64,000 nucleotides of DNA, taken from positions 16,638 to 80,637 of the forward strand of contig CAYNFS010000001.1 in the NCBI GenBank assembly GCA_964396685.1, given 5' to 3'. Numbering within the stretch: the stretch's first letter is position 1; the number at the start of each line of letters is the position of its first letter. The position numbers and the translations under genes are program-made. Shown here in pieces: positions 45,980 to 60,758 of the stretch. The notes beneath the pieces are model-generated. The model had not been told where the DNA came from, made no database searches, and saw nothing but the letters and a program-made list of their open reading frames with translations. The DNA comes from an uncultured Candidatus Saccharibacteria bacterium. Lineage in GTDB: Bacteria; Patescibacteriota; Doudnabacteria; UBA920; 2-01-FULL-46-14.

Positions 45980-47205
45980 AACCCTTTGATTTTAACTGAT
46001 TGAATAATATCCGCAAGCTCATCAATTAACACTTCATAAGTATAATTTTGGAGCACGCGCTGCCGTCCCGCCTGCCCCAAACGATGGCGTAACGCCTCAT
46101 CCGACAAAAGTTTTACTGCCGCTTGCGCCAGCGTTTTGGCATCGGCCGGGGGCACGACCAAGCCGGTTTGGTTGTGCAAATTTATTTCCGGACCCCCACC
46201 CAAGCTGGTCGTGATTACTGGCAAGCCTGCGGCCATGGCTTCAATCGTGACCTGGCCGAAATGCTCAACCCAAGTGGAGGGGACAATCAAAGCGTCTACG
46301 GCATTCAGGTACTCCGGAAGTTTTTCAAACGGCTTAAGCCCCACAAGTTGCACGTGTTCACGAATGCCCAATTTTTCAATAAGCGCCTTCATTCTCTCAC
46401 TCTCTCCTCCGCCGCCAATAATAACCAGGTTGACGTCCGGAAATTTTGCGATAATGTCCGGCATGGCCTGAAGAAGATAACCAATGCCTTTTTCCGCAAA
46501 ATTTATTCGGCCGATGAAAAGCAAAACTTGCTCGCCACGAATACCCAATTGTTTCTTCCACAATAATTTATCATCGCGCGGGGCAAAAAGATCCGCCTCA
46601 ATGCCAACTGACCAGACTGCGACTTTCTTTGCCACAACACCCAGAGGCCTTTCGGCTTCGGCCGCGGCACGACTCACAAATAATATTTTGGCGGCCTTTT
46701 CATAAATTGTCTTCGCAAACCGACGCTGATTTTTGCGATCCAAAACCCATTCCAAAAAAGGGATTTTGGCAGCGGGACGAGAAAGATGCCATTGCCAAGC
46801 CGTGATTTGTCGAAACATAAACGGAGCGCGCAGCCGGTCACAAATCTTGGCCACCGCAAAACCAGTCTCCCTAGCTTGCCAAACGAGAATCGCGTCATAC
46901 TTCACCGCTCTGTCCAATTTTAACACTGTCTTTCTGGTAGCCCAGAAATACCAAAGCCGCAGCGGTCGGGAAAGAAAAAACAATTTACGGCTATTCCAAA
47001 GCGGGGGGTAGTATCGACAAACCTTCACTCCGCCGACATCTATGCTGCCCTTCTTGAAAAAAGACAGCCACGGCGCCGCCACCAGAACTTCGTGTCCCGA
47101 AGCCGCAAGCCTGCGCATCATTTCTATAAAGTAATGATAGGTGCCCAAGTGTCGCCCCAGCTCTTCCTCCGTTCCAAATTTGTAAGCGACAACGAGAAGC
47201 TTCAT
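45976..47205 (-). CDS. glycosyltransferase family 4
   Basis: EHFGQVTIEAMAAGLPVITT. Confidence 0.85.
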   Translation of the reverse strand: MKLLVVAYKFGTEEELGRHLGTYHYFIEMMRRLAASGHEVLVAAPWLSFFKKGSIDVGGVKVCRYYPPLWNSRKLFFLSRPLRLWYFWATRKTVLKLDRAVKYDAILVWQARETGFAVAKICDRLRAPFMFRQITAWQWHLSRPAAKIPFLEWVLDRKNQRRFAKTIYEKAAKILFVSRAAAEAERPLGVVAKKVAVWSVGIEADLFAPRDDKLLWKKQLGIRGEQVLLFIGRINFAEKGIGYLLQAMPDIIAKFPDVNLVIIGGGGESERMKALIEKLGIREHVQLVGLKPFEKLPEYLNAVDALIVPSTWVEHFGQVTIEAMAAGLPVITTSLGGGPEINLHNQTGLVVPPADAKTLAQAAVKLLSDEALRHRLGQAGRQRVLQNYTYEVLIDELADIIQSVKIKGL

Positions 47206-48293
47206 AGACTAAATTCCTCAATGATTTTTTTCACCAGATTATTCAAATCATGTTCTCTGGCCACCCAGTCTCGCAATTTCTTTGCGAGTGTATGTTTTTC
47301 AGATACCGGAAGATTTTTCATTTGGACTATTCTCACGGCCAGTTCTTCCGGCCTGTCTCTTTGAAAAAAAAGAAGCGAAGATATTTCCCCGAGTGGTTTG
47401 GCAAACGCTTCATTCGAGGTCAAAACCGGAATCCCGCAGGCCGCCGCTTCCAGCACCGTTTTGTCAATACTGCCGGTCTGGCTTAAATTCACAAATAAAT
47501 CCGCTTCCTGATACGCTTCATCAGCATACTCATAGTTCAGCTCGCCTTGGAATTTGACGATCCCCTCCAGATCAGCATTATGAATAAATTCAATCAGAGA
47601 ATCTAGATAGCTCTGATGCTCCGGCAGGCCGATTTTGCCGTAAATTTCAACCACAAAATCCTTAATTTGTTTCTCGTAATATAAAATTTGCGCGGCTTTA
47701 ACGAGAGTTTCATAATCCTTCACAGGCGAAATCCGGCCAATACTTAGTATTTGGAATTTGACCCCCTCTCTTTCTCCCCCTGTCCGCTTGAGGCGGATAG
47801 GGGGAGATGAAGTGGGGGTAAATTTTTCTATATCAATCCCGTGCCCCACCACTTTCACTTTCTTTGACGGCATTCTGAAACTCTCTTTTGACGCCGTAAA
47901 AACCGTATCAACCAAAGCATGAGCGATTTTTAATTTCCAATCTACTGCCTTGTGCGTGTACCATAAAATTATTTTTTTGCCGAAAATTTTGGCTGGCAGC
48001 CAAGCGATGATCGCGTAAAAAGGATGCATGTGCACAAAAAAGCCGTCAGTTTTTTGGGCTAACCTAAAAGCTATAAGCCATAAGCTACAAGCTTGTCTTA
48101 TTTTCCCATACCCCTTCTCTTTGCCGAAAGAATAAACCTCGATATTCGAAGCCAAACCAGAAGTGTCGCCTTTTTCTTGGCAGATGACATAGAGTTTTTC
48201 CAACCTTGCCGCGAGATTGTTAAGCCAGCCAAACACAAACCCCGTTAGCGAATCTCCTCTATCAACTTTTCTGGTTATAAAAACTAACCCCAT
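47202..48293 (-). CDS. glycosyltransferase family 4 (contains in-frame palindromic element A1)
   Basis: TVLEAAACGIPVLTS. Element at 47762-47818 encodes PTSSPPIRLKRTGGEREGV before the conserved ILSIGRISPVKD. Confidence 0.85.
   Translation of the reverse strand: MGLVFITRKVDRGDSLTGFVFGWLNNLAARLEKLYVICQEKGDTSGLASNIEVYSFGKEKGYGKIRQACSLWLIAFRLAQKTDGFFVHMHPFYAIIAWLPAKIFGKKIILWYTHKAVDWKLKIAHALVDTVFTASKESFRMPSKKVKVVGHGIDIEKFTPTSSPPIRLKRTGGEREGVKFQILSIGRISPVKDYETLVKAAQILYYEKQIKDFVVEIYGKIGLPEHQSYLDSLIEFIHNADLEGIVKFQGELNYEYADEAYQEADLFVNLSQTGSIDKTVLEAAACGIPVLTSNEAFAKPLGEISSLLFFQRDRPEELAVRIVQMKNLPVSEKHTLAKKLRDWVAREHDLNNLVKKIIEEFSL
47762..47818. repeat. palindromic element family A, copy A1 (ccccctctctttctccccc-N19-gggggagatgaagtggggg)
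   Basis: Imperfect inverted C5/G5-bounded arms. 57 nt, in frame in a GT4 gene. Confidence 0.8.
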
Positions 48294-48709
48294 TGTTTCG
48301 GGATAATGAAACTAAAGGTCTTAGGATGAATAATAGGAATACCGCGAAATGTCTTGATTTTGAGCAAGTGCTTATCCATAGTTACAATCAGATTTGCCTT
48401 AGCCGCAACCGCACATTCCAAAATTTTATTATCATCGGGATCTTTCTCGACAACTCGTACCTGTTCTCTAACTGCAACAAATCGACAACGCCTTAAAATT
48501 AATTGCTTAAAATCCTCGATATCGGATGAGGCAGCCAATCCCTTTTCCGGAAATATAGATAATTTAGCAAATATTTCTTCTAATATTTCTGCAGAAATGA
48601 ATAAAAAATAACCATTCTTTGGATCAAGAACAGTCTGCAAAAGTCTGTACGAAAAGCCGCGACTCAATACTGCTGAAACAAAAATATTGGAATCGAAAAT
48701 GATTCTCAC
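48284..48709 (-). CDS. vapC: PIN-domain protein (VapC-like toxin)
   Basis: MRIIFDSNIF...DPDDNKILECA...LIVTMDKHL acidic quartet. Confidence 0.7.
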   Translation of the reverse strand: MRIIFDSNIFVSAVLSRGFSYRLLQTVLDPKNGYFLFISAEILEEIFAKLSIFPEKGLAASSDIEDFKQLILRRCRFVAVREQVRVVEKDPDDNKILECAVAAKANLIVTMDKHLLKIKTFRGIPIIHPKTFSFIIPKQWG

Positions 48710-48716
48710 AGATATT

Positions 48717-48956
48717 TTAGCCGAAATACTTCTCCACGTCCTCTTCCGTTTTTATTCCAAGTTTTTTGGCGGCCCGTCCAAAAATTTTCTGAAGCCGGTC
48801 AAGTTCACTTTTCACGACATAACTGCTGAACGCATCTTTAGCCGCTTGACTCACGGGAATTCCTCGGTCTTTAGAAAATCTAATAACCTCCTCTTTGAGG
48901 GATTTAGGGAGCGAAACGCTAAGAATTTCTGTTTTATTGCGGTTAGCTTGAGGCAT
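48717..48956 (-). CDS. ribbon-helix-helix (CopG/Arc-like) antitoxin candidate
   Basis: Small basic protein 7 nt upstream of the PIN gene. LSVSLPKSLKEEVIRFSKDRGIPVSQAAKDAF. Confidence 0.5.
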   Translation of the reverse strand: MPQANRNKTEILSVSLPKSLKEEVIRFSKDRGIPVSQAAKDAFSSYVVKSELDRLQKIFGRAAKKLGIKTEEDVEKYFG

Positions 48957-49097
48957 GTTATTTATGAATTAATTTTTATTACTCTGTAATAAGATTACAT
49001 TATTCAAACGCGATTTGTCAAGGGAGAGGAGATGGGATGCTTGTCACACTCCCCTACCTAGCCCCTCCCATCCAGGGAAGGGAAAATTAAGCTTAAA

Positions 49098-49817
49098 TTA
49101 CCTAAACAATCCATACCTTACTATCCACCAAATCGCGGCAACGCCGTCTTTCCAGTTGATCTTTTTGCCCTCTTCATAGGTGCGGCCGTGGTAGGAAATG
49201 CCGGCTTCATAAACCCGCAATTTGAATTTCGAAGCGAGTGAGACGAGCTCTGGTTCGATTCCAAATCGCTTAGAGGAGAGACGGGCTTTGATCAAATCAA
49301 CGGCTTTGCGGTTAAACGTTTTGTAGCAGGCGTAAACATCGGATAGATTAAGATTGGTGAACATGTTGGAAAAAGTGGTCAAGGCGCGATTTCCCAGATA
49401 ATGCCAGAAATACAAGACGCGGTGGGGGCGTTCGGAAATAAACCGCGAGCCAAAAACCGCATCAGCCTCTCCCGCCACAATCGGGGCGACAAGCGCTTGA
49501 TACTCGTCTGGGTCGTATTCCAAATCCGCATCCTGAATAATCACGAAATCGCCGGTCGCGGCCAAAAAGCCCGCCTTTACCGCAGCACCTTTTCCTTCGT
49601 TTCTTTCCTTAAAAATTATTTTGTATTCGTTTGCGACACCTCGCAAAATTTTCCGCGTCCCGTCGGTTGAGCAGTCATCAATGACAATGATTTCTTTTTC
49701 AATTCCCAAAAGCTTGCTCTGCTTAACCCGCTGCAGCACTTCCAGAATGGTATTTTTTTCGTTGTAAACCGGGATGATAATAGATAATGTCATGCAGTTT
49801 TGGCAATGTCTTTCCAA
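49098..49817 (-). CDS. glycosyltransferase family 2 (DPM1/polyprenyl-phosphate glycosyltransferase-like)
   Basis: LSIIIPVYNE...DDCSTDGT...QDADLEY. Confidence 0.85.
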   Translation of the reverse strand: MERHCQNCMTLSIIIPVYNEKNTILEVLQRVKQSKLLGIEKEIIVIDDCSTDGTRKILRGVANEYKIIFKERNEGKGAAVKAGFLAATGDFVIIQDADLEYDPDEYQALVAPIVAGEADAVFGSRFISERPHRVLYFWHYLGNRALTTFSNMFTNLNLSDVYACYKTFNRKAVDLIKARLSSKRFGIEPELVSLASKFKLRVYEAGISYHGRTYEEGKKINWKDGVAAIWWIVRYGLFR

Positions 49818-50860
49818 AAATTAACGATTCGAGGAATCGCTTTCTCGGAATCATAAAGCCTCGCCTCCTCCTGCGCTTTCCCACCAAGCCGTGAGCGCAA
49901 ATCGGGACTAGCAATGAGCCTTTCAAGCGTCTTCCTTAATTCCGCCTTGCCGCCAATGTAAACTAAAAGTCCATTTTCGCCGTTTCTGATAATGTTAATA
50001 GCGCCCGGAGTTCTGGTCGCCACAATTGCGCAACGGGCGGCGGCCGCTTCCAAAAGTGCCCAGCCAAAGCTTTCAGTATTGGAAGGCAGAACAAAGATAT
50101 CCGCCTCCCGATATATAGGCGGCAGCTCTTCGTGAGTTTTGAATCCCAAAAATTCAATTTGTTTGGCATCCCTCGCGAGATTTTTAAGCTTACCCTCCTG
50201 CGGCCCTTGGCCTGCAATCTTCAAAACCGCCGCGACTTTCAATTCTTTAACCGCCTCAATGAGCATAGCCACATTTTTCTCGGTGGACAAGCGGCCGACA
50301 AAAAGAATCACGGGAATCGGGTTTGTTTTTTTATCTGGTGTAAAAAAATCCTTAATGGCTACGGGGGTGGGTGCTACCAAAACGGGTTTGCCAATGCCCC
50401 ACTTATCGAGTCTTTCGGCAATATTTGAATTCACTACCCGAAAAGCATCGGCTATTTTGATCGCTTTCTTGATGCAGATATACAAAAACCATTTGAGAGG
50501 GTCTAGCCCGAGCCACTTACTTGTAAAAAACATGCTGTGAATGCTCACAAGCAAAGGCGTGCCGAATTTGGCTTTAAGCCTTGCCCCGACTGGGGAGGCA
50601 AATTCCTGGGTCACGACAAGCTCATATTTGTTTTGGACAAACAGGCGCGCGGCCAGCTGATACGCCTTTTGGTAGTGGAAAAATTTGGTGGAGCCCGTGC
50701 TGTACACTCGAAAATTTGAAGTCCACTCGAGCGCTGACTGGTTTGGCGCAAAAACAATGACGTCCAAAGCGCCAGCACAGTCTGCGTATTTTTTGTGCCT
50801 TTCTGTTACCTCCCCGGCCGTAAAAAGTCTTCTGTCCAAACTGATCATCAAGACACGCAT
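49790..50860 (-). CDS. glycosyltransferase family 4
   Basis: ESFGWALLEAAAARCAIVAT. Confidence 0.85.
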   Translation of the reverse strand: MRVLMISLDRRLFTAGEVTERHKKYADCAGALDVIVFAPNQSALEWTSNFRVYSTGSTKFFHYQKAYQLAARLFVQNKYELVVTQEFASPVGARLKAKFGTPLLVSIHSMFFTSKWLGLDPLKWFLYICIKKAIKIADAFRVVNSNIAERLDKWGIGKPVLVAPTPVAIKDFFTPDKKTNPIPVILFVGRLSTEKNVAMLIEAVKELKVAAVLKIAGQGPQEGKLKNLARDAKQIEFLGFKTHEELPPIYREADIFVLPSNTESFGWALLEAAAARCAIVATRTPGAINIIRNGENGLLVYIGGKAELRKTLERLIASPDLRSRLGGKAQEEARLYDSEKAIPRIVNFWKDIAKTA

Positions 50861-51990
50861 TTTTGCAGTATCTTAATTGTTCTTTCTATCATATTTTTCT
50901 TTGAGAGATTTACCTTAAATTTCTCAAACGCGCTTCTGGCACTGCTCGCAAGCTTTTGCCGTAAGGCAGGATCACTGTAAACTTGCAAAATAGCCTTTTT
51001 CAGCTGCTCTTTATTATTATACTCGATCAAAATCCCGCTTACTTTGTCCTCGACAAGCTCCGCGTTCCCGCCAATGCGAGTCGCAATGACGGGCAACCCA
51101 GCTGACATCGCCTCCAAAATCGTGTGCGACAACCCTTCGTAACCGGTATTGAGCACAAAAAGATCAGACGAGCCGAATTTTTTATACAATTCAGCACGGG
51201 GCAGATCATGATAAATCTCAAGCCTGATATCCGGATAGATTTGTTGCAGCTCTCCTACCGCCTTCCTCAATAATTCAAAGCCTTTCCAAGGAACATCGCG
51301 CCCGGCAGAAACAATCAGAAATTCTGACCCCCTCTCTTTCTCCCCCTTAACAAGGGGGAGATGAAGAGGGGGTATCGCGTTGTAAATTACTTCAACGTGG
51401 CTTTCTTTGACCCCCCAGCCCATAACCAAATTTTTCAAGTACAATGAGGGCACAACGACTTTGCAGGCCGCCTTGCAAACGCGAATCTGGATGTCGCGCA
51501 TCTTGGCAATTTTTTTGGGATAGCGGGGCAATTTCTGAAATTCGTCAATCAATTTATCAGTCAAGCCACGGCCCATGGCCTGCTCCCAGGAATAATCCCC
51601 GGTAATTTTCACGACATAGGGTTTTTTGAGCACGCGAGCGGCCAGAGAGGTCGGGTAGCCGGCCGAGACGGGATCTTGGGCGTAAAATATGTCAAAACCC
51701 CTGCCGAATTTTTTTACAGCGCGGAAATATTTATAGTAATGCCAGGGCTTGAACCAGGAGCGTGTGACGCGTGTTACTAAATAATCGTCATTGCGAGGAG
51801 TCTGCGACGAAGCAACCCCTGTGAGATTGCCGCGCTCCCTGCGGTCGCTCGCAATGACACTAGAATTTCCATAGGTAATCACCCTCACCTCATGCCCTAA
51901 TTTCTTTAACCCCCATGCGAGGAATTCACTATACGTCGCCGGCCCTCCTATCTCGGGCGGGAAAATCCCAGTACAAATTAAGATTCTCAT
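50848..51990 (-). CDS. glycosyltransferase family 4 (contains in-frame palindromic elements A2 and B1)
   Basis: EGLSHTILEAMSAGLPVIAT. Insert peptides PPLHLPLVKGEKERGSE and VIASDRRERGNLTGVASSQTPRNDD. Confidence 0.85.
   Translation of the reverse strand: MRILICTGIFPPEIGGPATYSEFLAWGLKKLGHEVRVITYGNSSVIASDRRERGNLTGVASSQTPRNDDYLVTRVTRSWFKPWHYYKYFRAVKKFGRGFDIFYAQDPVSAGYPTSLAARVLKKPYVVKITGDYSWEQAMGRGLTDKLIDEFQKLPRYPKKIAKMRDIQIRVCKAACKVVVPSLYLKNLVMGWGVKESHVEVIYNAIPPLHLPLVKGEKERGSEFLIVSAGRDVPWKGFELLRKAVGELQQIYPDIRLEIYHDLPRAELYKKFGSSDLFVLNTGYEGLSHTILEAMSAGLPVIATRIGGNAELVEDKVSGILIEYNNKEQLKKAILQVYSDPALRQKLASSARSAFEKFKVNLSKKNMIERTIKILQKCVS
51328..51372. repeat. palindromic element family A, copy A2 (short 7-nt spacer)
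   Basis: Identical left arm. 45 nt, in frame. Confidence 0.8.
51787..51858. repeat. palindromic element family B, copy B1 (gtcattgcga...tcgcaatgac termini)
   Basis: 10-bp perfect inverted termini plus inner cgacgaagcaa arm. 72 nt, in frame. Confidence 0.8.
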
Positions 51991-53681
51991 TTGAATTGTC
52001 CGTGATAAATGTAAAAGGCTTCGCGACCCTGGTCATCATAAATAATCTCCGGAGTAATTCCTTGATTTACAAAATTATCTACCAAAATCTTGGTTTCAGG
52101 GAAATTGACCCGGGACTCGCGAGCCACCTCCTTTCCAGATACCACCAGATATAAGCTGTCTAAATTCAGGCTATTAAACATGGTAAGGTCGTTCTCGCTT
52201 CGGACAACCTTTAAAAATTCTTCCGAAGTCATAATCAAAAAGCGGTGATATTGCTTCCATCTTTCAAAAATCCACATGGTGGCAAACCAGTTTGTTTGAA
52301 GATCGTAAATCAGAAGCGAGGCAAAAGGTGTTGAACCTTCCCGCAGCATCGCGAAATCAACAGCCTCTGGTTTCATGTCTTTGTACCACCAGAGCCTTGC
52401 TGCTTCTTGAACATTGGGCGGCGAGCGTTTACCGGCAAGCAGTTCTGTAATTTTTTGATCCAGCTGGGTATAGCCGTAATTTTCTACACGAAAATCAGAA
52501 TATAAAAATTGACCCCCAACAGGCTTGCGTAAATGATTCGTATTTATGATGTAAAATACAAAAAAAACTGAAACAATTCCTACAAGTGCCCAAACCAGAT
52601 ATTTAAGCTTTTGATAAGAATTGGTCCTTTGCCAAGAACCGAATCCTAAACCCAAAACCAAAGCAGCAAATGGACTTGTCACCCCCAACCATCTGGCGGC
52701 ACCTCCCACAACCGGAAAAATGATTAGCATGGAACTGATTACTAAAACCGGCAAAAGTTTGACCGATAAAAACCGCTCTTTGCGCAGAAAAAAGAGCAGA
52801 GTTGAAAACGATAGGACAACAAGCGCAAAATACGGGATTGAATATCCTTCAACGAGTGTGTTTACAACTGCCCCAAAATTCCACCGCAGCGGCTGGACAC
52901 GATTGGAAAGTAGAGTCCAGTCAGCATGCTGCTGTTTGAAAAGGTCCGAAAACTGGACGTCAAAATGCCCACGAGCCACATACAGCATGAGATTATAAAT
53001 TATTATCGGGCTTATCGCCAAAACGAAAATTATAACGCCCTGCCAGAATTTTTTGTTTGAGAAAATTTGCCTCTGCTTCCAGAGAATATACAAAAAAAGT
53101 CCCGGCAAAACAAAAAGAAAGGTGTATTTGGTCAAAAAGGCCAATCCGAGGTAAAAACCGGCATGCCGGAAAAATTTTGGGCTGTCCTCCAAAGCTTTGA
53201 GCAAATACAAGATACCAAGCAACAGAAAAAAAGTGAAAACACTTTCCAATAATCCAATCCGCCCAGTCCAAATGAAGTAATTATTCAAAACCAAAGCGCC
53301 CATTGAAAGCAGCCCCGCTTCTATTCCCGCCATTCGTTTGCCAATCAAATAAACCAAAACTGCGGAACCCAAAGCGGCAAAAACAGAAGGAAGTCTGGAA
53401 ATCAAAATTGAAACGCCAAAAATTTTAAAAAACCAATTTTGAATCAAAAAAAACAGCATGGGATGATCGTGGAAAGACAAATATGACCACCATGGCCTTT
53501 CCCCAAACCACTGTACCGGAGTGGTCTGTTTCAAAGAGGACAAAAAATCAAAATAGCCAAGCGAACGGAAAGCGTAGTGTCCGTCATCGCCCAGCATGTC
53601 CTGCCGCGTCAGGCGGAAAAAAAGCAGGAACGCGGCGAGCAACATCAGACTGATAAAAATTATTTTCTGATTCTTGGACAC
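51987..53681 (-). CDS. glycosyltransferase family 39/83-like (ArnT/PMT-type) polytopic membrane glycosyltransferase
   Basis: Eleven or more TM helices. N-terminal DDGHYAF-type periplasmic loop resembling the GT-C ArnT/PMT DE/DD motif. Confidence 0.7.
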   Translation of the reverse strand: MSKNQKIIFISLMLLAAFLLFFRLTRQDMLGDDGHYAFRSLGYFDFLSSLKQTTPVQWFGERPWWSYLSFHDHPMLFFLIQNWFFKIFGVSILISRLPSVFAALGSAVLVYLIGKRMAGIEAGLLSMGALVLNNYFIWTGRIGLLESVFTFFLLLGILYLLKALEDSPKFFRHAGFYLGLAFLTKYTFLFVLPGLFLYILWKQRQIFSNKKFWQGVIIFVLAISPIIIYNLMLYVARGHFDVQFSDLFKQQHADWTLLSNRVQPLRWNFGAVVNTLVEGYSIPYFALVVLSFSTLLFFLRKERFLSVKLLPVLVISSMLIIFPVVGGAARWLGVTSPFAALVLGLGFGSWQRTNSYQKLKYLVWALVGIVSVFFVFYIINTNHLRKPVGGQFLYSDFRVENYGYTQLDQKITELLAGKRSPPNVQEAARLWWYKDMKPEAVDFAMLREGSTPFASLLIYDLQTNWFATMWIFERWKQYHRFLIMTSEEFLKVVRSENDLTMFNSLNLDSLYLVVSGKEVARESRVNFPETKILVDNFVNQGITPEIIYDDQGREAFYIYHGQFK

Positions 53682-53789
53682 GTCTTTGAAATAGGAATAT
53701 GCTATTATTAACTCGCCAAAATCATATCATATATCCGCACAACAAACCAATTTATGCTATTATAAACTCATCATATCGCCCAAAAACGA

Positions 53790-53834
53790 GTTATCGGAAA
53801 TATTGCTCTTTTAAAACAAATATTTTTAGGAAGC
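53790..53834. repeat. left arm of an approximately 45-bp imperfect inverted repeat flanking the small ORF cassette
   Basis: gttatcggaaatattgctcttttaaaacaaatatttttaggaagc. Its reverse complement recurs at 54133-54208. Confidence 0.8.
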
Positions 53835-53852
53835 TACATTAAACAACCAAAA

Positions 53853-53858
53853 AGGAGG
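53853..53858 (+). promoter_or_regulatory. Shine-Dalgarno AGGAGG, 6 nt upstream of ATG 53865
   Basis: Perfect AGGAGG. Confidence 0.6.
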
Positions 53859-53864
53859 CGTGCC

Positions 53865-54092
53865 ATGACACGTTATACCGCGCTTGTTATTCAAAGCGGA
53901 GGCGACATTCGCTGTAAACCATACCAGCACAAAGTTACTGGCAAATGGGCTGGAGCAGTAAATCTGTACCATGATGGTTCTCTCCATACCACGCTACTTT
54001 CTTCGAAACCGGTCTTTGAATCTTCCGAGATGGCAGTGGCCTATATGGAGGATGTCGTCAAGCGGGTTCGCGCCGCAAATGTGCTGACCTAA
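53865..54092 (+). CDS. small hypothetical protein (75 aa) inside the IR-bounded cassette
   Basis: Strong SD, ORF followed by two hairpins. No recognisable domain. Confidence 0.45.
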   Translation: MTRYTALVIQSGGDIRCKPYQHKVTGKWAGAVNLYHDGSLHTTLLSSKPVFESSEMAVAYMEDVVKRVRAANVLT

Positions 54093-54132
54093 AGTCAGCT
54101 TCCAAATTTCCGGGGAGACGCAACGTTTCCCC
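54083..54132 (+). terminator. two consecutive hairpins (gctgac-ctaaa-gtcagc; ggggagacg-caa-cgtttcccc) after the small ORF, possible terminator
   Basis: Stems read directly from the sequence. No clean U-tract. Confidence 0.3.
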
Positions 54133-54208
54133 GCTTCCTAAAAATATTTGTTTTATTTTGGCTAACCGCCAAAAGGCTATCGCCTAAAAGAGCAATACAT
54201 CCGATAAC
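54133..54208. repeat. right arm of the inverted repeat (interrupted by an approximately 29-nt insertion containing the ttttggc/gccaaaa mini-hairpin)
   Basis: gcttcctaaaaatatttgtttta ... taaaagagcaatacatccgataac. Reverse complement of the left arm with 2 mismatches. Confidence 0.8.
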
Positions 54209-54295
54209 ACGGCATATCTGAAAAAATAAGCCACGTAGCAGGCTGGTTTTTGGCAAATTGCCGATTTTTCTTTTATTTGTTATGCTTACGCCACC

Positions 54296-54586
54296 ATGGC
54301 ACAAATAAAAATACGCGAGAAAATTCGTAAACAATTTCCTTTATTAAGGGAAAAATACCATGTCAAAAAGATCGGGATTTTTGGCTCTTTTGCCCGTGGC
54401 GAACAAGAAAAGGGAAGCGACTTGGATGTTCTGGTGGAATTCGAAACTCCCGTCAGCTTTTTTGATTTTATCAGGCTGGAAAATTTTTTAACCCATGCTT
54501 TACGCAAAAAAGTGGATTTAGTTTCCAAGAGGGCCGTCAAGCCAGCGGTAAAAAAGGAAATTTTCAAAGAAGTGCAATATGTCTAA
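54296..54586 (+). CDS. minimal nucleotidyltransferase (MNT) antitoxin-type protein
   Basis: GIFGSFARGE...SDLDVLVEF (GS...DxD). Confidence 0.8.
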   Translation: MAQIKIREKIRKQFPLLREKYHVKKIGIFGSFARGEQEKGSDLDVLVEFETPVSFFDFIRLENFLTHALRKKVDLVSKRAVKPAVKKEIFKEVQYV

Positions 54587-54923
54587 AAGAGGGATAAGAC
54601 TCTACCTTGAAGATATCCAGAATTCTATTCGAAAAATAGAGAAGTATACACGTGGCTCTAATTTTGATAAATTTTCCAAAGATGAAAAATTGATTGACGC
54701 AGTCGTCAGGAATCTCTCTGTTATCGGCGAAGCGGTCAGGAGTATTCCCCGGCATATGAAGGCCAAAAATCCAGACATGGCTTGGAAAGAAGTCAAAGGC
54801 ATGAGAAACAAGGTTGTTCATGAGTATTTTGGCATTGATGAAGAAATCTTGTGGAAGACTATTCAAGAAGATCTGCCAGTTTTCAAAAAGCAAATCGCCA
54901 GACTATTAAGCGATATTAAATAA
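54579..54923 (+). CDS. hepT: HepT-like HEPN toxin (DUF86)
   Basis: Rx4-6H HEPN motif RNKVVHEY. Overlaps the MNT gene stop. Confidence 0.8.
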   Translation: MSKRGIRLYLEDIQNSIRKIEKYTRGSNFDKFSKDEKLIDAVVRNLSVIGEAVRSIPRHMKAKNPDMAWKEVKGMRNKVVHEYFGIDEEILWKTIQEDLPVFKKQIARLLSDIK

Positions 54924-54957
54924 AAGAAAAATCGGCAACTTCAGATACACTTGAACG

Positions 54958-56187
54958 TTATGCTTTAACCAATCGCTCGAGAAGCGTTCCCATTTTTTGA
55001 GCGATAATCTCCCAGTCGTATTTTTCTTCCACGAGTTTTCGGCCGTTCTGGCCGAGCTTTTCCCGCAACTGCCCGTCTTCCAGGAGCAGTTTTATTTTTT
55101 CGGCTAAATCTTTGGGGTCATCGGCTTTGACGAACAAGCCGTTAGGATTTGACCCACTCTCACTCTCCCCCTCCGCCCCGTTGGCGAGGAGGAGAAAAGG
55201 AGAAAGAAACTCCGGAATTCCCCCGACCGGAGTGCCAATCACCGGCAATCCCGCGGCCATGGCTTCCAGAAACGAGCTTCCCAAGCCCTCGGAGCGCGAA
55301 GGGCGGACAAAAATGTCGGCTTGGCTTAAGTAATCGGGGATCTTCTCCGACTCGACATTTCCGACAAATTCTACCATGTCTTCCACGTTTAAATCTTTTG
55401 CAAGCTGTTTAAGTTTAACTTCTTCAGGCCCGCTTCCCACAATCAACAACTTGACGTCATTGCGAGGAGTCTGCGACGAAGCAATCTCATGATTTTGGGA
55501 TTGCTTCCTCCTCGACAAGCTCGGGGTCGCAATGACAGCCATTGCGTGAATCAAAATATCAATCCCGTTCTTCGGCACCAGCCGGGAGGTTGTGATTATT
55601 TTAATAATTCTGCCCCCTCTCAATCTCCCCCGTGATAAGGGGGAGAAAACAGAGAAGGTGACTCCATTCGGCACAACTTCAATCGGACGAGTCGCTCCTT
55701 CCGCTTTTGCCCAATCGGCAAGATATTGGCTGATTGCCTGAATGCAGTCCGCTCGCCTGAAAATTTTCTGCCACTGCTTCTTAAAGCCTCTGACCCTGCG
55801 ATGAATGTGGACAATCTCGTCTCCTTCCTGCAATGTCAGCAAAAACTTTACTTGAGGAAACCTGCGCAGATACATCAAAGCCGCGGCTCCCGCGTAAGCC
55901 GCCATAACCCCCCAGACAATTTGATATGGACGCTCCTGATGAAATTTTTTAGCAAGCCTAAATGCCAAAACCGGATACAAATACCTCCCCAAGCGACTGC
56001 CGAATCCTACGCGATAGACATTGACGTTGCCTATCCGCTCGAAAGATTTGTGCTTGCGGCTGAAACGGCAGGTGACCAAATCAAAATCAAAGGACGGCAA
56101 ACGATCGGTAATGTTCCTGACCGCGAGTTCTGCGCCTCCGATCAAGGGCTCGTAAGCAATGCTGAAAATCAAGATACGGGGTTTCAT
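54958..56187 (-). CDS. glycosyltransferase family 4 (contains in-frame palindromic elements B2 and A3, plus a possible degenerate third copy)
   Basis: SFLEAMAAGLPVIGT. Insert peptides VIATPSLSRRKQSQNHEIASSQTPRND and FSPLSRGRLRGGR. Confidence 0.85.
   Translation of the reverse strand: MKPRILIFSIAYEPLIGGAELAVRNITDRLPSFDFDLVTCRFSRKHKSFERIGNVNVYRVGFGSRLGRYLYPVLAFRLAKKFHQERPYQIVWGVMAAYAGAAALMYLRRFPQVKFLLTLQEGDEIVHIHRRVRGFKKQWQKIFRRADCIQAISQYLADWAKAEGATRPIEVVPNGVTFSVFSPLSRGRLRGGRIIKIITTSRLVPKNGIDILIHAMAVIATPSLSRRKQSQNHEIASSQTPRNDVKLLIVGSGPEEVKLKQLAKDLNVEDMVEFVGNVESEKIPDYLSQADIFVRPSRSEGLGSSFLEAMAAGLPVIGTPVGGIPEFLSPFLLLANGAEGESESGSNPNGLFVKADDPKDLAEKIKLLLEDGQLREKLGQNGRKLVEEKYDWEIIAQKMGTLLERLVKA
55456..55536. 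repeat. palindromic element family B, copy B2
   Basis: gtcattgcgaggagtctgcgacgaagcaatc...gattgcttcctcctcg...gtcgcaatgac. Confidence 0.8.
55613..55658. repeat. palindromic element family A, copy A3 (divergent arms)
   Basis: ccccctctcaatctccccc-gtgataa-gggggagaaaacagagaagg. Confidence 0.65.
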
Positions 56188-57095
56188 GAAAGTCCATACA
56201 GTTTTTTAAGTTCCGCAATTCCTTTTTCCAAAGAGTTCTTCGGCTGCCAGCCTAAAAGTTTTCCGGCTTTTGTGTTGTCGGCCAAAGTTACGCGGGTTTC
56301 AGCCGGTCTGGGCGGAATATGCGCGCTTTCTCCGCCGATAATTTTCGCCACCTCATTAATACTGTAATTTTTCCCGGTACCGATATTAAAAATTTCACCG
56401 CCAAGAACTTCCTTTTGCCAAGCCAAAATATTCGCCTCCACTACATCTGAAACGTAAGTAAAATCGCGCTGCTGCTCTCCATCACCGACGATTGGCAGAG
56501 GTTCTCGATTTTTAAATCTATCTAAAAAAATGCCTATGACCGTGGCATAAGGCCCATCGGCTTCCGTAGTTTGCCTCGGCCCATAAACATTGAAGTAGCG
56601 CAAAACCACAGTCGGAAATTTGTAAAGCTCGGAAAAAAGCCGACAGTACATCTCCCCGACCAGCTTTTGCAATCCATAGGGGCTTTTCGGGCGCGGCGTC
56701 ATATCTTCGGTCAGCGGCAACCGATTCTGGTCTCCATACACCGAAGACGACGCGGAGTACACAAGCTTCTTCACCCCTGCTTTGTAAGCGGCCCATAAAA
56801 CGTTCAGAGTCCCGGTGATATTTGACTTGTTCCAAGGCAAAGGATTGGCAATGGACGGCTGGATGCGGGCCTGGGCCGCCAAGTGAAACACGCATTCCAC
56901 GCCTGCAAAATGCGGAGCGATTTTTTCGTAATCGGCAATGTCACATTCTACAAATTTTGCCCGGGGATTTAGATTTTTTTTCTTGCCGGTGGAAAGATTA
57001 TCCAAAACCACAACTTCATGGCCGTCCGCTATGAGCCTGTCCGCCAAATGTGAACCGATGAATCCAGCACCACCTGTGACTAAAAGCTTGGTCAT
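56184..57095 (-). CDS. NAD-dependent epimerase/dehydratase (extended SDR; UDP-sugar 4-epimerase or UDP-glucuronate decarboxylase-like)
   Basis: LLVTGGAGFIGSHL and YGLQK. Confidence 0.85.
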   Translation of the reverse strand: MTKLLVTGGAGFIGSHLADRLIADGHEVVVLDNLSTGKKKNLNPRAKFVECDIADYEKIAPHFAGVECVFHLAAQARIQPSIANPLPWNKSNITGTLNVLWAAYKAGVKKLVYSASSSVYGDQNRLPLTEDMTPRPKSPYGLQKLVGEMYCRLFSELYKFPTVVLRYFNVYGPRQTTEADGPYATVIGIFLDRFKNREPLPIVGDGEQQRDFTYVSDVVEANILAWQKEVLGGEIFNIGTGKNYSINEVAKIIGGESAHIPPRPAETRVTLADNTKAGKLLGWQPKNSLEKGIAELKKLYGLS

Positions 57096-57883
57096 TTTTT
57101 TGCTTTAAGGCGTTCGTTAATCTTGTCCACTTGCTCGAGGAGCCGTAAATCTAAGCCAAGTTTTTGGCCAAGCCAAACTAGGCTTTTGAGATCTTTTGGC
57201 AGGCATTTGCCGTCGTACCCTCGATAGCCTGCGTGCAAGACGTCAAAGTGCGCGTTGTCATTTCTGATTCTCGAATCAGCCGCCAATCCCTCTCGCACCG
57301 TATGATAATCAATCTCAAGCTTTTCGCAAAGATCATAAATATTGTTGGCAAAAATCACTTTGAAAGCGTAATAAGAATTGATGGCATATTTCGCCATCTC
57401 GGCAATGCTTGCCGGCGCAATTTTTTGATAAGGGGCGGATGGCAGAATCTTCAAAACCTGGTCCGCCAAATCCTTGGTTTTTGTGGTATATCCTACAAGC
57501 TGTTTGTCGGGATGCGCAAAATCCTCAATTGCGGTCTTTTCCGTCAAAAATTCGGGGTTGAAGATAAAATTAGCTTGAGAGTACTTTGCTTGATAATTAT
57601 CAGTCGTCCCAGGCACCACCGTGGATTTAATAATAATAATCTGTTTGTCAGGATTAACCAGGTGCGAAACTGTTTTGGCAACGGCATCGTCCATCTCCGT
57701 TAAATCCTGACCGTTGTTGTGCGGAGTCGGAACTGCTACAAAAATCAAATCACTCGCTGCCACTTCTTCGATGGGATCGGAATCCTTGTATTTATCGTAA
57801 ACCTTCACTTTCCCATAATAAGCGGCTATGGCCTTGCCGACTGCTCCGCCGCCAACGATTCCGACTGAAAATTTATTGGTCAT
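57092..57883 (-). CDS. short UDP-glucose/GDP-mannose dehydrogenase-family protein (NAD-binding domain plus catalytic-Cys region, no C-terminal UDP-binding domain)
   Basis: VGIVGGGAVG, VAVPTP, IIIKSTVVPGTT, NPEFLTEKTA, DGKCLPKD. Confidence 0.6.
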   Translation of the reverse strand: MTNKFSVGIVGGGAVGKAIAAYYGKVKVYDKYKDSDPIEEVAASDLIFVAVPTPHNNGQDLTEMDDAVAKTVSHLVNPDKQIIIIKSTVVPGTTDNYQAKYSQANFIFNPEFLTEKTAIEDFAHPDKQLVGYTTKTKDLADQVLKILPSAPYQKIAPASIAEMAKYAINSYYAFKVIFANNIYDLCEKLEIDYHTVREGLAADSRIRNDNAHFDVLHAGYRGYDGKCLPKDLKSLVWLGQKLGLDLRLLEQVDKINERLKAKK

Positions 57884-58712
57884 ACTTTCCTTGGTTTAGG
57901 CGAAGATTCACTTCTTTAGCTTTTTCAAACAAAGACATATCCACGCCCAGTGCTTTCCCTTCGGCAATCACACTTTTGATGTCCTTTGGGAAACATTTCC
58001 CGCCATAGCCACGGTATGCTTCATGACGATTTTGATTAAGGCTTGCCTCGGTATGCCAGATTTCCCAATGGCTTTCTCCCACGCGCTTGTCGGCCACCAC
58101 CGCCTCTTTGACCAGTTCATAATCAATTCCTAGAGCTTGGCAAATGTCATAAATTTGATTTGCAAAAATCACGCGCAGGGCCAAAAAAGTGTTAGACGCG
58201 TATTTAATCATCTCCGCAACGGTGGCTGGGACAATTTTCCGGTAAGGCGCTTCCGGCAAAATTTCCAAAAGTTCAGAAATCAAAGGATTATCTTTGGTTT
58301 TGCTTGTAAACCCCGCGATTTGTCTGTCGTTTTTGAGAAAATCATCGTTCGCGGTTTTGTCGCGTAAAAATTCCGGGTTGAAAGCAAAGTTAATCAAGGG
58401 ATATTTTTGCTGATACTTTTCAGTGGTTCCCGGAAGCGCCGTTGATTTGATCACGACTAACTGATTGGCCGAATCAACAAGATGAGTTACCACGTTCTCG
58501 ACCGCCTCGTCCAAAATAGACAAATCAAAACCGCCATTGTATGGGGTAGGTACGCAAATAAAAATAAACCGAGCTTGGGCTACTTCCTCGATTGGGTCAG
58601 AATCTTTATATTTGTCGTAAACCTTGGCGGAGTTAAAAAAATTTTTAACCGCGCTCCCGACTACCCCGCCGCCGATGATTCCAACTAAATGTCCACTCAT
58701 GTTATAATCCAT
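57873..58712 (-). CDS. short UDP-glucose/GDP-mannose dehydrogenase-family protein, tandem paralog
   Basis: VGIIGGGVVG, ICVPTP, VVIKSTALPGTT, NPEFLRDKTA, GGKCFPKD. Confidence 0.6.
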   Translation of the reverse strand: MDYNMSGHLVGIIGGGVVGSAVKNFFNSAKVYDKYKDSDPIEEVAQARFIFICVPTPYNGGFDLSILDEAVENVVTHLVDSANQLVVIKSTALPGTTEKYQQKYPLINFAFNPEFLRDKTANDDFLKNDRQIAGFTSKTKDNPLISELLEILPEAPYRKIVPATVAEMIKYASNTFLALRVIFANQIYDICQALGIDYELVKEAVVADKRVGESHWEIWHTEASLNQNRHEAYRGYGGKCFPKDIKSVIAEGKALGVDMSLFEKAKEVNLRLNQGKYDQ

Positions 58713-58726
58713 TATGTCTTAAAAAT

Positions 58727-59929
58727 ATGGAAAAGTCAATCTGTTTTGTGGTAACCCAGGGAGAATTAGGCGGCGCCCAGCGCTACGTTTTTGATCTGGC
58801 TGCAAGTCTTGCGGGCTCTTATCGAGTTTTGGTCGTGGTCGGAGCCGAAAAGTCAGAATTGCAGCAAAAACTGCAAGAAGCAAACGTTGAAGTGAAAATG
58901 GCTAACAATCTTGTGCGAAAAATTCATCCGATCAAAGACCTTCGCGCAATTTTTGAATTAAGAAAGGTTTTTCGGGAAATAAAGCCGGATATCGTGCATC
59001 TAAACAGCAGCAAGGCGGGAGTTATGGGAAGCATTTCGGCCAGGCTTGCCGGTATCAAAAATGTGATTTTTACGGCGCACGGATTTGCCTTTTTGGAGCC
59101 GCATTCCTGGATAATCAGACAAATTTATTTTTGGGCCGAAAAAATTGCCAGTCTTTTTCGCCGCAAAATCATCTGCGTTTCGGAGTTTGACCGGCAGGAA
59201 GCGATCAAATGGGGCCTTTGCCAGCCGGAAAAACTGGTAACTATTCATAACGGGATTGAACCCTTCAACGTCATTGCGACCCCGAGCTTGGCGAGGGGGA
59301 AGCAATCTCATGAGATCGCCACGGGCTTACGTCCTCGCGATGACAGAAATACGGTAATTGGAACGATAGCCAACCTCTACAAAACCAAAGGCTTGGAATA
59401 TCTGATAGAGGCCGCCCATATACTAAATACTAAATACCAAATACTAAATACTAAATTTCTCGTCATTGGCGAAGGGCAGGAAAGAGGGAATCTGGAATCA
59501 CAAATCAGGAATAATGGTTTACAAGACAAATTCATTTTGCTTGGGGCAAAACCGGATGCCGCGCAATATCTGCCGCAATTTGACATTTTTGTTTTGCCGT
59601 CAATCAAAGAAGGTTTCCCTTATACCATTCTGGAAGCAATGAGTGCGGGGTTGCCAATCGTGGCAACGGCGGTGGGAGGTATTCCGGAAATGCTAACCCC
59701 CTCTCTTTCTCCCCCTATTTCGCAGAGCGAAACAGGGGGAGATGAAGTGGGGGTTCTCGTTCCTCCCAAAGACCCGCAAGCGCAGGCAGAAGCAATCCGG
59801 TTTCTGGTCAACAATCCCGGAATAGCAAAAAAACTCGGACAAAATGCCCAAGCCAAAGTCAAAGAATTCACCGCAGAAAAGATGATAAACAAAACGATCG
59901 GAATTTATGAGTCATTGCGAGGAGTGTAA
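58727..59929 (+). CDS. glycosyltransferase family 4 (contains in-frame elements B3 and A4 and an in-frame (atactaa)5 repeat; element B4 overlaps its stop)
   Basis: FPYTILEAMSAGLPIVATAVGGIPE. TATAAT-like hexamer at 58704-58709 about 18 nt upstream of the ATG. Confidence 0.85.
   Translation: MEKSICFVVTQGELGGAQRYVFDLAASLAGSYRVLVVVGAEKSELQQKLQEANVEVKMANNLVRKIHPIKDLRAIFELRKVFREIKPDIVHLNSSKAGVMGSISARLAGIKNVIFTAHGFAFLEPHSWIIRQIYFWAEKIASLFRRKIICVSEFDRQEAIKWGLCQPEKLVTIHNGIEPFNVIATPSLARGKQSHEIATGLRPRDDRNTVIGTIANLYKTKGLEYLIEAAHILNTKYQILNTKFLVIGEGQERGNLESQIRNNGLQDKFILLGAKPDAAQYLPQFDIFVLPSIKEGFPYTILEAMSAGLPIVATAVGGIPEMLTPSLSPPISQSETGGDEVGVLVPPKDPQAQAEAIRFLVNNPGIAKKLGQNAQAKVKEFTAEKMINKTIGIYESLRGV
59270..59344. 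repeat. palindromic element family B, copy B3 (variant termini gtcattgcga...tcgcgatgac)
   Basis: 75 nt, in frame. Encodes VIATPSLARGKQSHEIATGLRPRDD. Confidence 0.7.
59420..59454. repeat. heptanucleotide tandem repeat (atactaa)x5, with one ataccaa variant, inside the GT4 CDS (encodes ILNTKYQILNTKF)
   Basis: Read directly from the sequence. Confidence 0.9.
59697..59753. repeat. palindromic element family A, copy A4
   Basis: Arms identical to A1. The spacer is itself palindromic (tttcgcagagcgaaa). Confidence 0.8.
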
Positions 59930-59991
59930 CGACGAAGCAATCTCACAGGCTTTAGGATTGCTTCGTCCGCCTCTGGCGGACTCGCAATGAC
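59911..59991. repeat. palindromic element family B, copy B4, spanning the GT4 stop codon and the convergent intergenic region; possible bidirectional terminator
   Basis: gtcattgcgaggagtgtaacgacgaagcaatc...gattgcttcgtc...ctcgcaatgac. Contains the TAA at 59927-59929. Confidence 0.8.
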
Positions 59992-60713: not shown

Positions 60714-60758
60714 GAACCAAAAACAACCCCGCCCTTTTTGCGAAAAGGGCGGGGTGTT
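60714..60758 (-). terminator. rho-independent terminator (stem ccccgcccttttt/aaaagggcgggg followed on the minus-strand transcript by UUGUUUUUGGUU)
   Basis: Perfect 12-bp GC-rich stem and U-run, read directly from the sequence. Lies downstream of the large surface-protein gene. Confidence 0.6.

Follow-up and report, generated by a model that had tools for sequence, protein, structure and literature searches.

Two families of palindromic repeats in the reading frames of four GT4 glycosyltransferase genes of a Doudnabacteria-like genome

In-frame palindromic insertions in protein-coding genes are a textbook oddity of Rickettsia. The Rickettsia palindromic elements (RPEs) reportedly described by Ogata and colleagues in 2000 lie in frame in protein genes, are translated, and are tolerated in surface loops; to our knowledge, no transposase is known for them. 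Here, we analyzed a 64-kb stretch of contig CAYNFS010000001.1 (the window, to which all coordinates refer unless a locus is named) from a Doudnabacteria-like (Patescibacteria) genome, in which two families of palindromic repeats, families A and B, occur inside four genes for family 4 glycosyltransferases (GT4).

Repetitive extragenic palindromic (REP) sequences carrying a CGTC tag form the second closely comparable system (Di Nocera, De Gregorio, and Rocco, 2013, BMC Genomics 14:522; PMC3733652). Their units are defined by a tag (CGTC or TGTC), by a stem whose first bases are AT, and by a tail reading CCA; they occur mostly as head-to-head dimers in several phyla with no dedicated transposase, adjoin the 3′ ends of convergent genes, and in a minority of cases form intragenic dimers encoding 20 to 30 residues. 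CGTC-1 corresponds to Rickettsia RPE-6 and CGTC-4 to RPE-4, Novosphingobium is a host of CGTC-2, and the loops of CGTC-1 in Bradyrhizobium vary in length (PMC3733652).

Our data indicate that families A and B are probably small, non-autonomous, dispersed, hairpin-forming repeats of the REP/RPE kind, a known type of selfish DNA, whose in-frame survivors are retained in GT4 loops. This reading draws on what the repeats are, how widely they are distributed, where they stand in the reading frames, their presence or absence in orthologs, and their location in loops of the protein.

Repeats within the GT4 reading frames

Four family A hairpins, one degenerate A-like copy (A′), and four family B palindromes were found within 12 kb, and eight of these nine copies are intragenic, lying within four GT4 genes whose reading frames remain intact. 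Reading the four regions directly recovered the eight A and B copies of the original prediction at the coordinates it had assigned; A′ (55153–55205), which had been missing from that list, is one of six window matches to CCCCCTCTCTTTCTCCCCC with at most three mismatches (0.02 expected from shuffled sequence). A hairpin scan and a repeat scan detected no A or B copy in the remaining 52 kb of the window. The four host open reading frames (ORFs) encode proteins with Glyco_transf_4 and Glycos_transf_1 domains: GT4e (47202–48293, minus strand, 363 aa), GT4c (50848–51990, minus strand, 380 aa), GT4b (54958–56187, minus strand, 409 aa, also P0001), which carries three inserts, and GT4a (58727–59929, plus strand, 400 aa), which carries two inserts and a further copy, B4, at its stop codon.

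Family A takes the form TCTCCCCC-loop-GGGGGAGA nested in CCCCC...GGGGG, extended in the window to CCCCCTCTCTTTCTCCCCC-loop-GGGGGAGATGAAG(T/A)GGGGG, with a left arm that is identical in A1, A2, and A4 (19/19 nt). A1 (47762–47818, 57 nt) encodes residues 159–178 of GT4e (TPTSSPPIRLKRTGGEREGV) in the linker before the C-terminal Rossmann domain, and its loop contains a nested small hairpin (dG, −22 kcal/mol; z, −6.25). A2 (51328–51372, 45 nt; z, −4.5) encodes residues 207–221 of GT4c (PPLHLPLVKGEKERG) in the inter-domain linker, as does A3 (55613–55658; z, −2.6), which has a degenerate right arm, for residues 177–192 of GT4b (TFSVFSPLSRGRLRGG). The remaining two copies lie further downstream in their proteins: A4 (59697–59753, 57 nt; z, −5.5) supplies residues 324–343 of GT4a (TPSLSPPISQSETGGDEVGV), a loop after GGIPEML, and A′ (z, −1.6) supplies residues 328–345 of GT4b (LSPFLLLANGAEGESESG) in the equivalent loop.

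Family B has the form GTCATTGCGA-hairpin-G(A/C)(A/G)GCAATC-loop-GATTGC...-hairpin-TCGCAATGAC, with the terminal decamer GTCATTGCGA present at each copy end. The inner sequence GAAGCAATC has six matches in the window, compared with 0.93 expected, an about six-fold over-representation. Each window copy is a heterodimer of two different units, one unit being common to B1 and B2 and another to B2 and B3. B1 (51787–51858, 72 nt; z, −3.3), a heterodimer of two CGTC-type units, encodes residues 45–68 of GT4c (VIASDRRERGNLTGVASSQTPRND) in an N-terminal domain loop; B2 (55456–55536, 81 nt; z, −4.75) encodes residues 218–244 of GT4b (VIATPSLSRRKQSQNHEIASSQTPRND) after the first helix of the C-domain; and B3 (59270–59344, 75 nt; z, −1.25), with a degenerate right arm and a 41-nt arm that is 93% complementary to B2, encodes residues 182–206 of GT4a (VIATPSLARGKQSHEIATGLRPRDD) in the inter-domain linker. 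As had been proposed, B4 (59911–59991, 81 nt; dG, −24.9; z, −7.0) contains the TAA stop of GT4a and fills the gap to a convergent tetratricopeptide repeat (TPR) gene. B4 also encodes the six codons that precede this TAA, and it ends 11 nt short of the stop of the TPR gene (60002). Folded as single-stranded DNA, A1, A2, A4, B1, B2, and B4 were far more stable than shuffled sequences (z, −3.3 to −7.0; 0/200 shuffles equal), and A3, B3, and A′ folded weakly (z, −1.3 to −2.6); the latter three are degenerate, decaying copies.

Two regularities that had been predicted for the copies hold in part. The intragenic copies do keep the host frame, but their lengths are not all multiples of three, since A3 as delimited spans 46 nt owing to its degenerate right arm; the length of B2 and B4 is corrected here to 81 nt. 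Palindromy had also been expected to yield similar peptides in either orientation. This applies to A1 and A4, which are oppositely oriented and encode TPTSSPP...GGEREGV and TPSLSPP...GGDEVGV, respectively, peptides that are alike because the element is palindromic; it does not apply to B2 and B3, whose peptides are alike because both have the same orientation relative to their host genes. The reading frame of A2 differs from that of A1, A3, and A4.

A separate observation concerns GT4c at 51039–51090, where the codons of the conserved motif PVIATRIGGNAELVEDKV share an exact 11-mer (GTCATTGCGAC) and an exact 14-mer (GAGCTTGTCGAGGA) with one B2/B3 unit, with 15 extra bases between the two and in a frame that differs from that of B2 and B3. 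A post hoc estimate of chance is about 10^-3, a rough value; the match may be coincidental, or gene and repeat may have exchanged sequence and left this trace.

The inserts are concentrated at a few permissive sites of the fold, namely the inter-domain linker, an N-domain loop flanked by VRVITY and VTRV, and, in the C-terminal Rossmann domain, two further loops. Three A copies had been placed just before the C-terminal Rossmann domain, and A1, A2, and A3 indeed lie at the inter-domain linker; Pfam domains and translations add B3 to this site. A structure was predicted for one of the four hosts, the 409-residue GT4b (AlphaFold; mean predicted local distance difference test score [pLDDT], 85.6; predicted template modeling score [pTM], 0.84), and the other three hosts were placed by Pfam domains and alignment. 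All three inserts of the modeled protein appear as coil between regular secondary-structure elements and coincide with three of its low-confidence stretches: A3, residues 177–192, with a pLDDT block of 57; B2, residues 218–244, with blocks of 57 and 49, the lowest of the model; and A′, residues 328–345, with values of 65–73. The predicted fold thus places the insert peptides of this host on the surface, outside the fold core, as in RPEs. Pfam domain positions and alignment locate the inserts of the three other hosts at the linker or at equivalent loops. The model and the alignments support the earlier proposal that the elements are tolerated in loops.

It could be argued that the shared segments descend from an ancestral linker peptide, were left behind by gene duplication, or arose as artefacts of assembly, and their co-occurrence in paralogous genes is what speaks for such an origin. 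However, the repeat arms are 95–100% identical among the GT4 paralogs, whereas the seven GT4 paralogs of the window are only 20–36% identical to one another. Both families also occur in hundreds of unrelated contigs, which rules against a duplication limited to four genes; orthologs exist without the segments, with another family in their place, or with the same family in another frame, which identifies the segments as insertions and not as an ancestral linker; and the same elements are present in hundreds of independent assemblies as well as in isolate genomes, with frames preserved. We regard this origin as scarcely credible.

Family B, family A, and known palindromic elements

To define family B beyond the window, its architecture was scanned in one genome per species (596 Gb) with a pattern of 26 specified bases that required a head-to-head dimer. 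At least 120 genome loci in about nine phyla were found, compared with about 0.2 chance matches expected by our own arithmetic. They span Alpha-, Gamma-, and Deltaproteobacteria, Bacteroidota, Cyanobacteria, Chloroflexi, Planctomycetota, Nitrospirota, and Patescibacteria (three genomes among the hosts listed), with Bradyrhizobium, sphingomonads, Micavibrio, Mucilaginibacter, Pedobacter, Nostoc, and Microcoleus as examples; Novosphingobium also has B-like copies. The pattern further occurred in at least 120 IMG/VR viral contigs, many of which share phage or gene-transfer-agent-like head and tail genes, and on alphaproteobacterial megaplasmids, where the matches are unannotated.

The family B unit can be written as (C/T)GTC-ATTGC, a variable inner hairpin (often a GCGAAGC mini-hairpin), and GCAAT-C(C/T)N. 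The base preceding GTCATT was C in 85/128 (66%) and T in 35/128 (27%) of the genome copies, and C in 88/142 and T in 47/142 of the viral copies; in the window, CGTC stands at the left of B1 to B3 and GACG at the right of B4. Every unit reads GTC-ATTGC...GCAAT, so the stem opens with A-T pairs at positions one and two. The tail past the first GCAAT is CCA in 74/128 (58%) and CTC in 19/128 copies, and in the window it is CTC in B2, B3, and B4, with GCAAC-CCC in B1. The stem comprises 5 bp, after which come an internal loop (GA/GAA) and an inner hairpin whose length varies, and GCGAAGC or its complement GCTTCGC was present in 87 of the 128 genome copies. GCGAAGC is an exceptionally stable DNA mini-hairpin. 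All four window copies are head-to-head dimers, as are all scanned copies under the dimer-requiring pattern. Lengths of the 128 genome copies were spread evenly modulo 3 (47/47/34), with no preference for multiples of three; frame preservation in the window is thus a survival filter and not a property of the element.

These features align family B with the CGTC REPs in the terminal CGTC/TGTC tag, the AT-start stem, the CCA-type tail, and the dimeric arrangement, and likewise in its span of phyla, the lack of an associated transposase, and copies beside convergent 3′ ends. B4 fits the published pattern of a convergent REP next to both 3′ ends, and the intragenic minority has matching hosts (uvrA, tRNA synthetase, and penicillin-binding protein [PBP] genes) (PMC3733652). 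The core of family B is unlike the CGTC-1 (VIPAKAGI) and CGTC-3 (VIAGLDPAIH) peptides of the supplement, and Patescibacteria, Chloroflexi, Planctomycetota, Nitrospirota, and Cyanobacteria lie outside the five phyla reported for CGTC elements (PMC3733652). Judged by these sequence features, family B belongs to the CGTC-tagged REP superfamily, and because its core peptides differ and its stem is interrupted, it is placed at the superfamily level, with none of the four published families assigned.

An RPE-like nature had been proposed for the window copies, and it is supported by the in-frame palindromes in intact ORFs and by the superfamily tag, stem, and tail of family B. As with RPEs, several copies per gene are possible and no transposase is known. 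The differences lie in sequence, phylum, and length (45–81 nt here, roughly 100–150 nt for RPE-1), and in the competition for the same GT4 loops between two unrelated families and, in relatives, a third, AT-rich one. The R. conorii CGTC-1 and CGTC-4 peptides (VIPAKAGI, SFPRKRES, and VIPWLDHGI) are unlike the VIA...KQS...RND peptides found here, and the elements encoding them have only the CGTCATT/AATGACG termini in common with family B (PMC3733652). Since the peptides differ and the host belongs to Patescibacteria, family B behaves like an RPE but belongs to no RPE family.

Family A has neither a GTAG nor a CGTC tag. The pattern CCCCCTCTCNNTCTCCCCC-N(4-30)-GGGGGAGA, searched in metagenomes, matched at least 120 contigs; among the copies listed, many have the outer CCCCC/GGGGG stem closed in the way seen in the window, some contain another small hairpin, and some are arrayed. 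Two contigs illustrate such groupings: at locus L193 (9606–9891), six family A-like hairpins stand in tandem with a period of 50–51 nt, and at L173 (6173–9550), six are dispersed within 3.4 kb, each preceded by TAG. The 120 family B loci contained no family A copy, and no name for family A was found in Rfam or the literature. No Rfam family attained its gathering score, either across the window or at 13 loci whose B copies are consensus-like, and on the A copies a permissive E-value returned only chance microRNA-like hairpin matches; known structured RNAs were thus rejected. Literature searches by sequence, by encoded peptide, and for in-frame palindromes of Patescibacteria or candidate phyla found nothing specific.

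Outside the window, both families are mostly intergenic: in contigs with less than 50% G+C, a position well inside a long ORF was seen for 13 of the 68 family A copies and for 4 of the 42 family B copies. The intragenic hosts include class I and II tRNA synthetases, 5′-3′ exonuclease, UvrA, GMP synthase, PBP transglycosylase, Lgt, Mur ligase, and a phage portal protein, mirroring the published list of intragenic hosts for CGTC REPs (PMC3733652).

Non-autonomy is indicated by several lines of data. Clustering of the ORFs around 270 B copies (240 loci) revealed no recurrent neighbor family attributable to the elements; a linked GIY-YIG or other nuclease or transposase gene was thereby rejected, as only host-gene families emerged, and the neighbors that recur on viral contigs are shared phage or gene-transfer-agent structural genes. 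In agreement with the original prediction that the window lacks a transposase, no such family was detected among 20 mostly small or unannotated ORFs scanned with Pfam, which include toxin-antitoxin genes and sugar-modifying enzymes, and Y1_Tnp had no match in these 20 or in nine further window ORFs. Of the proposal that the repeats are non-autonomous mobile palindromes, the non-autonomous part stands, and mobility is suggested by presence and absence at orthologous sites.

The REPIN/RAYT systems (Bertels and Rainey; Nunvar; Ton-Hoang) resemble our repeats in their inverted REP doublets forming long hairpins, their populations close to a master sequence, and a working model of mobilization in trans via single-stranded DNA. 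REPINs carry a GTAG tag and are accompanied by a single-copy RAYT gene flanked by REPs, and they are described as vertically inherited and lineage-specific, whereas family B is tagged with CGTC, lacks a linked gene, and keeps its termini unchanged from phylum to phylum and in viral contigs. Neither a GTAG tag nor, in the 240 loci, a recurrent neighbor gene was found. [quoted passage not shown] In families A and B, however, the palindrome makes up the entire element, which falls well below the length of most MITEs, and no target-site duplication or parent insertion sequence is visible at the window copies.

A more far-reaching interpretation, which we consider rather unlikely, would make family B a single pan-bacterial, transposase-less element whose nearly invariant termini are recognized by a universal host function (e.g., one that processes hairpins in the single-stranded DNA of the replication fork) or by a mobilizer still to be found. 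Such an element would move between phyla, perhaps on phage, gene-transfer-agent, or plasmid DNA, and both A and B would be directed to, or renewed at, GT4 linker and loop codons in streamlined Patescibacteria, with the hairpin playing its own role in translation or local variation.

Orthologs and the probable arrival of the elements

The best named relatives of the 409-residue GT4b are proteins of Candidatus Doudnabacteria. Its orthologs range from 363 to 453 residues, and those of 363–376 aa lack the insert segments; in an alignment of 25 orthologs, the length differences fell at three places, exactly the A3, B2, and A′ sites. Three related assemblies (loci L361, L362, and L364), in which gene order is conserved, allowed a site-by-site comparison; syntenic orthologs include those of GT4e at 15053–16129 of L362 and of GT4c at 12822–13901 of L362 and 12836–13933 of L364. 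At the GT4a linker, the window has B3, L361 a B-like copy, L362 an A-like copy, and L364 none; in the loop after GGIPEML, A4 of the window has an A-like counterpart in L361 and none in L362 or L364. In GT4c, for which L362 and L364 were compared, the N-domain loop that holds B1 in the window holds family A in both relatives, and the linker occupied by A2 is empty in both. The GT4e linker, compared in L362, carries A1 in the window and a diverged A copy in this relative. At the GT4b linker, A3 corresponds to family A in the same frame in L364, to family A in another frame in L362 (LSPPHEGERKRG versus FSPLSRGRLRGG), and to an unrelated AT-rich repeat in L361; many database orthologs also carry an A element here (FSPL.RGRLRGG). 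Orthologs at the B2 site have no insert, a single unit (VIA...KQS), other dimers, or a VILEGAKRLIG remnant, and at the A′ site most have no insert and others carry longer C/G-tract inserts.

The AT-rich repeat (TTCCAAATTCCAAAATCCAAATTTCAAA...) constitutes a third family at the GT4b linker, observed at about 10530–10590 of L361 and in P0002, P0010, P0013, P0020, P0030, and P0034, with peptides such as FQIPKSKFQINSK and FQFSISNFQSKSK. Among 120 GT4a homologs, an insert of at least eight residues is present at the linker in 39 and at the A4 loop in 19, and many of these inserts are recognizable REP-type peptides of other families. Further examples from the same GT4 loops of other Patescibacteria are the GT4a homologs P0203, with the CGTC-1-like SFPRRRES and HPGLDPGSR, P0161, with four tandem PEFISGSPHRH units, and P0218, with CHSEPAKNL.

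Some copies have diverged much less than their host genes. The family A copies in GT4c of L362 and L364 are identical at 45/45 nt, including 15/15 synonymous third positions, whereas identity over the remainder of the gene is 58.7%, and 82/185 synonymous third positions agree there. An identical copy in so diverged a gene, together with the frame changes, indicates that the DNA and not the peptide is kept; the copies are either much younger than the genes or held to consensus.

One alternative explanation is that the hairpins are retained for a function, by ribosome pausing on the mRNA between the two Rossmann domains, by tuning the expression of the glycan cluster, or as flexible Pro/Gly/charged linkers. 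Such a role would account for the location of A1, A2, A3, and B3 at the inter-domain linker, for the A element at the GT4b linker of the window, L362, L364, and many database orthologs, for synonymous-site identity far above that of the flanks in one orthologous pair, and for stems that are kept while loops vary. Yet the frame in which a given element is translated varies (between L362 and the window, and between A2 and A1 or A4), meaning that the peptide is not what is conserved; many orthologs have no insert at these positions or hold an unrelated family there; outside these genes, copies are mostly intergenic, and their hosts are unrelated genes; and A3, B3, and A′ are decaying. Taken together, we consider retention for function unlikely.

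A second explanation sees the copies as old, vertically inherited residents kept near consensus by gene conversion among dispersed copies, with no need for repeated insertion. The occupation of the same loops in long-diverged orthologs, the closeness of copies to consensus within and between genomes, and the single-unit remnants at the B2 site (VIA...KQS, VILEGAKRLIG) are in line with it. Family swaps are not: A in L362 and L364 in place of B1, and the choice of B, an A-like copy, or no insert at the GT4a linker, require that elements were newly inserted or replaced, and frame differences and filled/empty pairs in other genes point the same way. We judge long residence as the whole account to be improbable; it overlaps with our preferred explanation, altering how the copies are renewed and not what they are.

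The original prediction further held that the repeats might promote shuffling of N- and C-terminal domains among the GT4 paralogs and so vary the glycan. Identical arms at the domain boundary of three paralogs within 12 kb do offer short homology for such recombination, or for diversification of the glycan by other recombination. In all four hosts, however, the halves beside the linker element share the same syntenic ortholog as best hit, no cross-paralog match exceeds 36%, gene order is conserved in the three relatives, and arms of 19–31 nt are short for homologous recombination. These data speak against domain shuffling, and a recombination-signal role seems very improbable.

Filled/empty pairs were also seen elsewhere, in two comparisons that are too diverged for clear junctions. 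For family A, a 51-nt difference lies inside a 5′-3′ exonuclease gene; for family B, the difference lies in a short spacer between two conserved genes. The latter comparison involves phage/gene-transfer-agent-like clusters of IMG/VR, in which a B copy fills the stop-to-start spacer at L263 (319–400), L274 (1784–1864), and L260 (3563–3645), and the homologous spacer of about 10 nt lacks a B copy at L280 (about 3609–3625) and L297 (about 2531–2553).

In the preferred scenario, in which A and B are dispersed REP/RPE-like repeats, copies would have entered, or been copied into, the GT4 genes of this Doudnabacteria-like genome, and selection would keep them only where their length is a multiple of three, their sequence is stop-free in the host frame, and they fall in a surface loop. 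Surviving copies would consequently be translated as coil segments of 15–27 residues, and the same few loops would be refilled repeatedly in orthologs by different families and in different frames, the element DNA staying near the family consensus while the host gene diverges. By analogy with REP/RAYT and IS200/IS605, the copies may spread as hairpins of single-stranded DNA on which an enzyme from another locus acts in trans, a route that fits the stable mini-hairpin motif; a Y1/HUH-type transposase is a candidate for this enzyme by that analogy, and host replication or repair functions are another. Resident copies may additionally be refreshed by gene conversion or replacement.

Several points weigh against this scenario. 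GT4 genes make up about one eighth of the 64 kb, and all nine copies lie in or at them, which under a uniform spread over coding DNA has a probability of about 10^-7 (our own arithmetic); eight of the nine are intragenic, all in GT4 genes, compared with 10–19% in other low-G+C contigs. Neither transposition itself nor a target-site duplication or a clean empty site was observed, no direct repeats flank the window copies, and insertion boundaries cannot be defined because the relatives are too diverged (55–72% amino acid identity). The near-perfect nucleotide conservation at orthologous sites would also fit a selected hairpin function. The family B stem is interrupted, whereas the four published CGTC families have uninterrupted stems of 8–9 bp and loops of 4–5 nt (PMC3733652). 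The copy count and the search for a mobilizing enzyme draw on 64 kb of the source genome.

Given that only 10–19% of copies are intragenic elsewhere, the GT4 bias goes beyond what a selection filter alone explains. It recurs in L362, where all five complete GT4 genes contain C/G-tract hairpins, four of them with a family A-type core, and where the other called genes contain no family A- or B-type hairpin. The simplest reading of this bias is a tolerant GT4 fold under relaxed or diversifying selection, although targeting of the elements to GT4 genes is also conceivable.

Neighboring features and implications

The window contains further features besides the repeats. Between the PMT gene and GT4b, about 1.27 kb (53682–54957) is absent from L362 and L364, in which the two genes abut. 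It carries a nucleotidyltransferase (MNT, 54296–54586) and HepT-like (54579–54923) toxin-antitoxin pair, bracketed by a 29-nt inverted repeat (54255–54283 and 54913–54941), and looks like an inserted cassette. A long inverted repeat at 53787–54211, with arms of about 50 nt (53787–53834 and 54133–54211) that include a perfect 23-nt stretch, encloses a 75-aa ORF (53865–54092) with no Pfam match and could be a MITE-like element or a structured RNA. Within the glycan cluster, a PIN-domain toxin gene (48284–48709) is overlapped by an opposite-strand 100-aa ORF (48687–48989) with no Pfam match. A perfect 13-bp G+C-rich hairpin, ACCCCGCCCTTTT-TGCG-AAAAGGGCGGGGT (60726–60755), between the TPR gene and a 1018-aa gene resembles a terminator acting in both directions and has no relation to family A or family B. 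The 1018-aa ORF (60818–63874) has no Pfam match, nor do its syntenic counterparts of about 1290 aa.

The CGTC superfamily itself is published, and in-frame REP insertions are documented (PMC3733652). What is new is the host phylum, Patescibacteria, the density of copies, the reuse of the same loops by unrelated families and frames, and the finding of the CGTC-type element in additional phyla and in viral contigs. The density is unusual, at nine copies for four genes, and the relatives reveal a handful of loops in one enzyme fold that have been refilled repeatedly by unrelated repeat families. GT4 proteins, as well as many other proteins of candidate phyla, hold repeat-derived segments. Such segments exaggerate differences in length and make unrelated proteins look similar, and they should be masked before proteins are aligned or their structures predicted. 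The genomes of Patescibacteria are typically very small, so that a complete genome with apparently active CGTC-type repeats would provide a short list of candidates for the mobilizing function that has long been missing from the CGTC superfamily.

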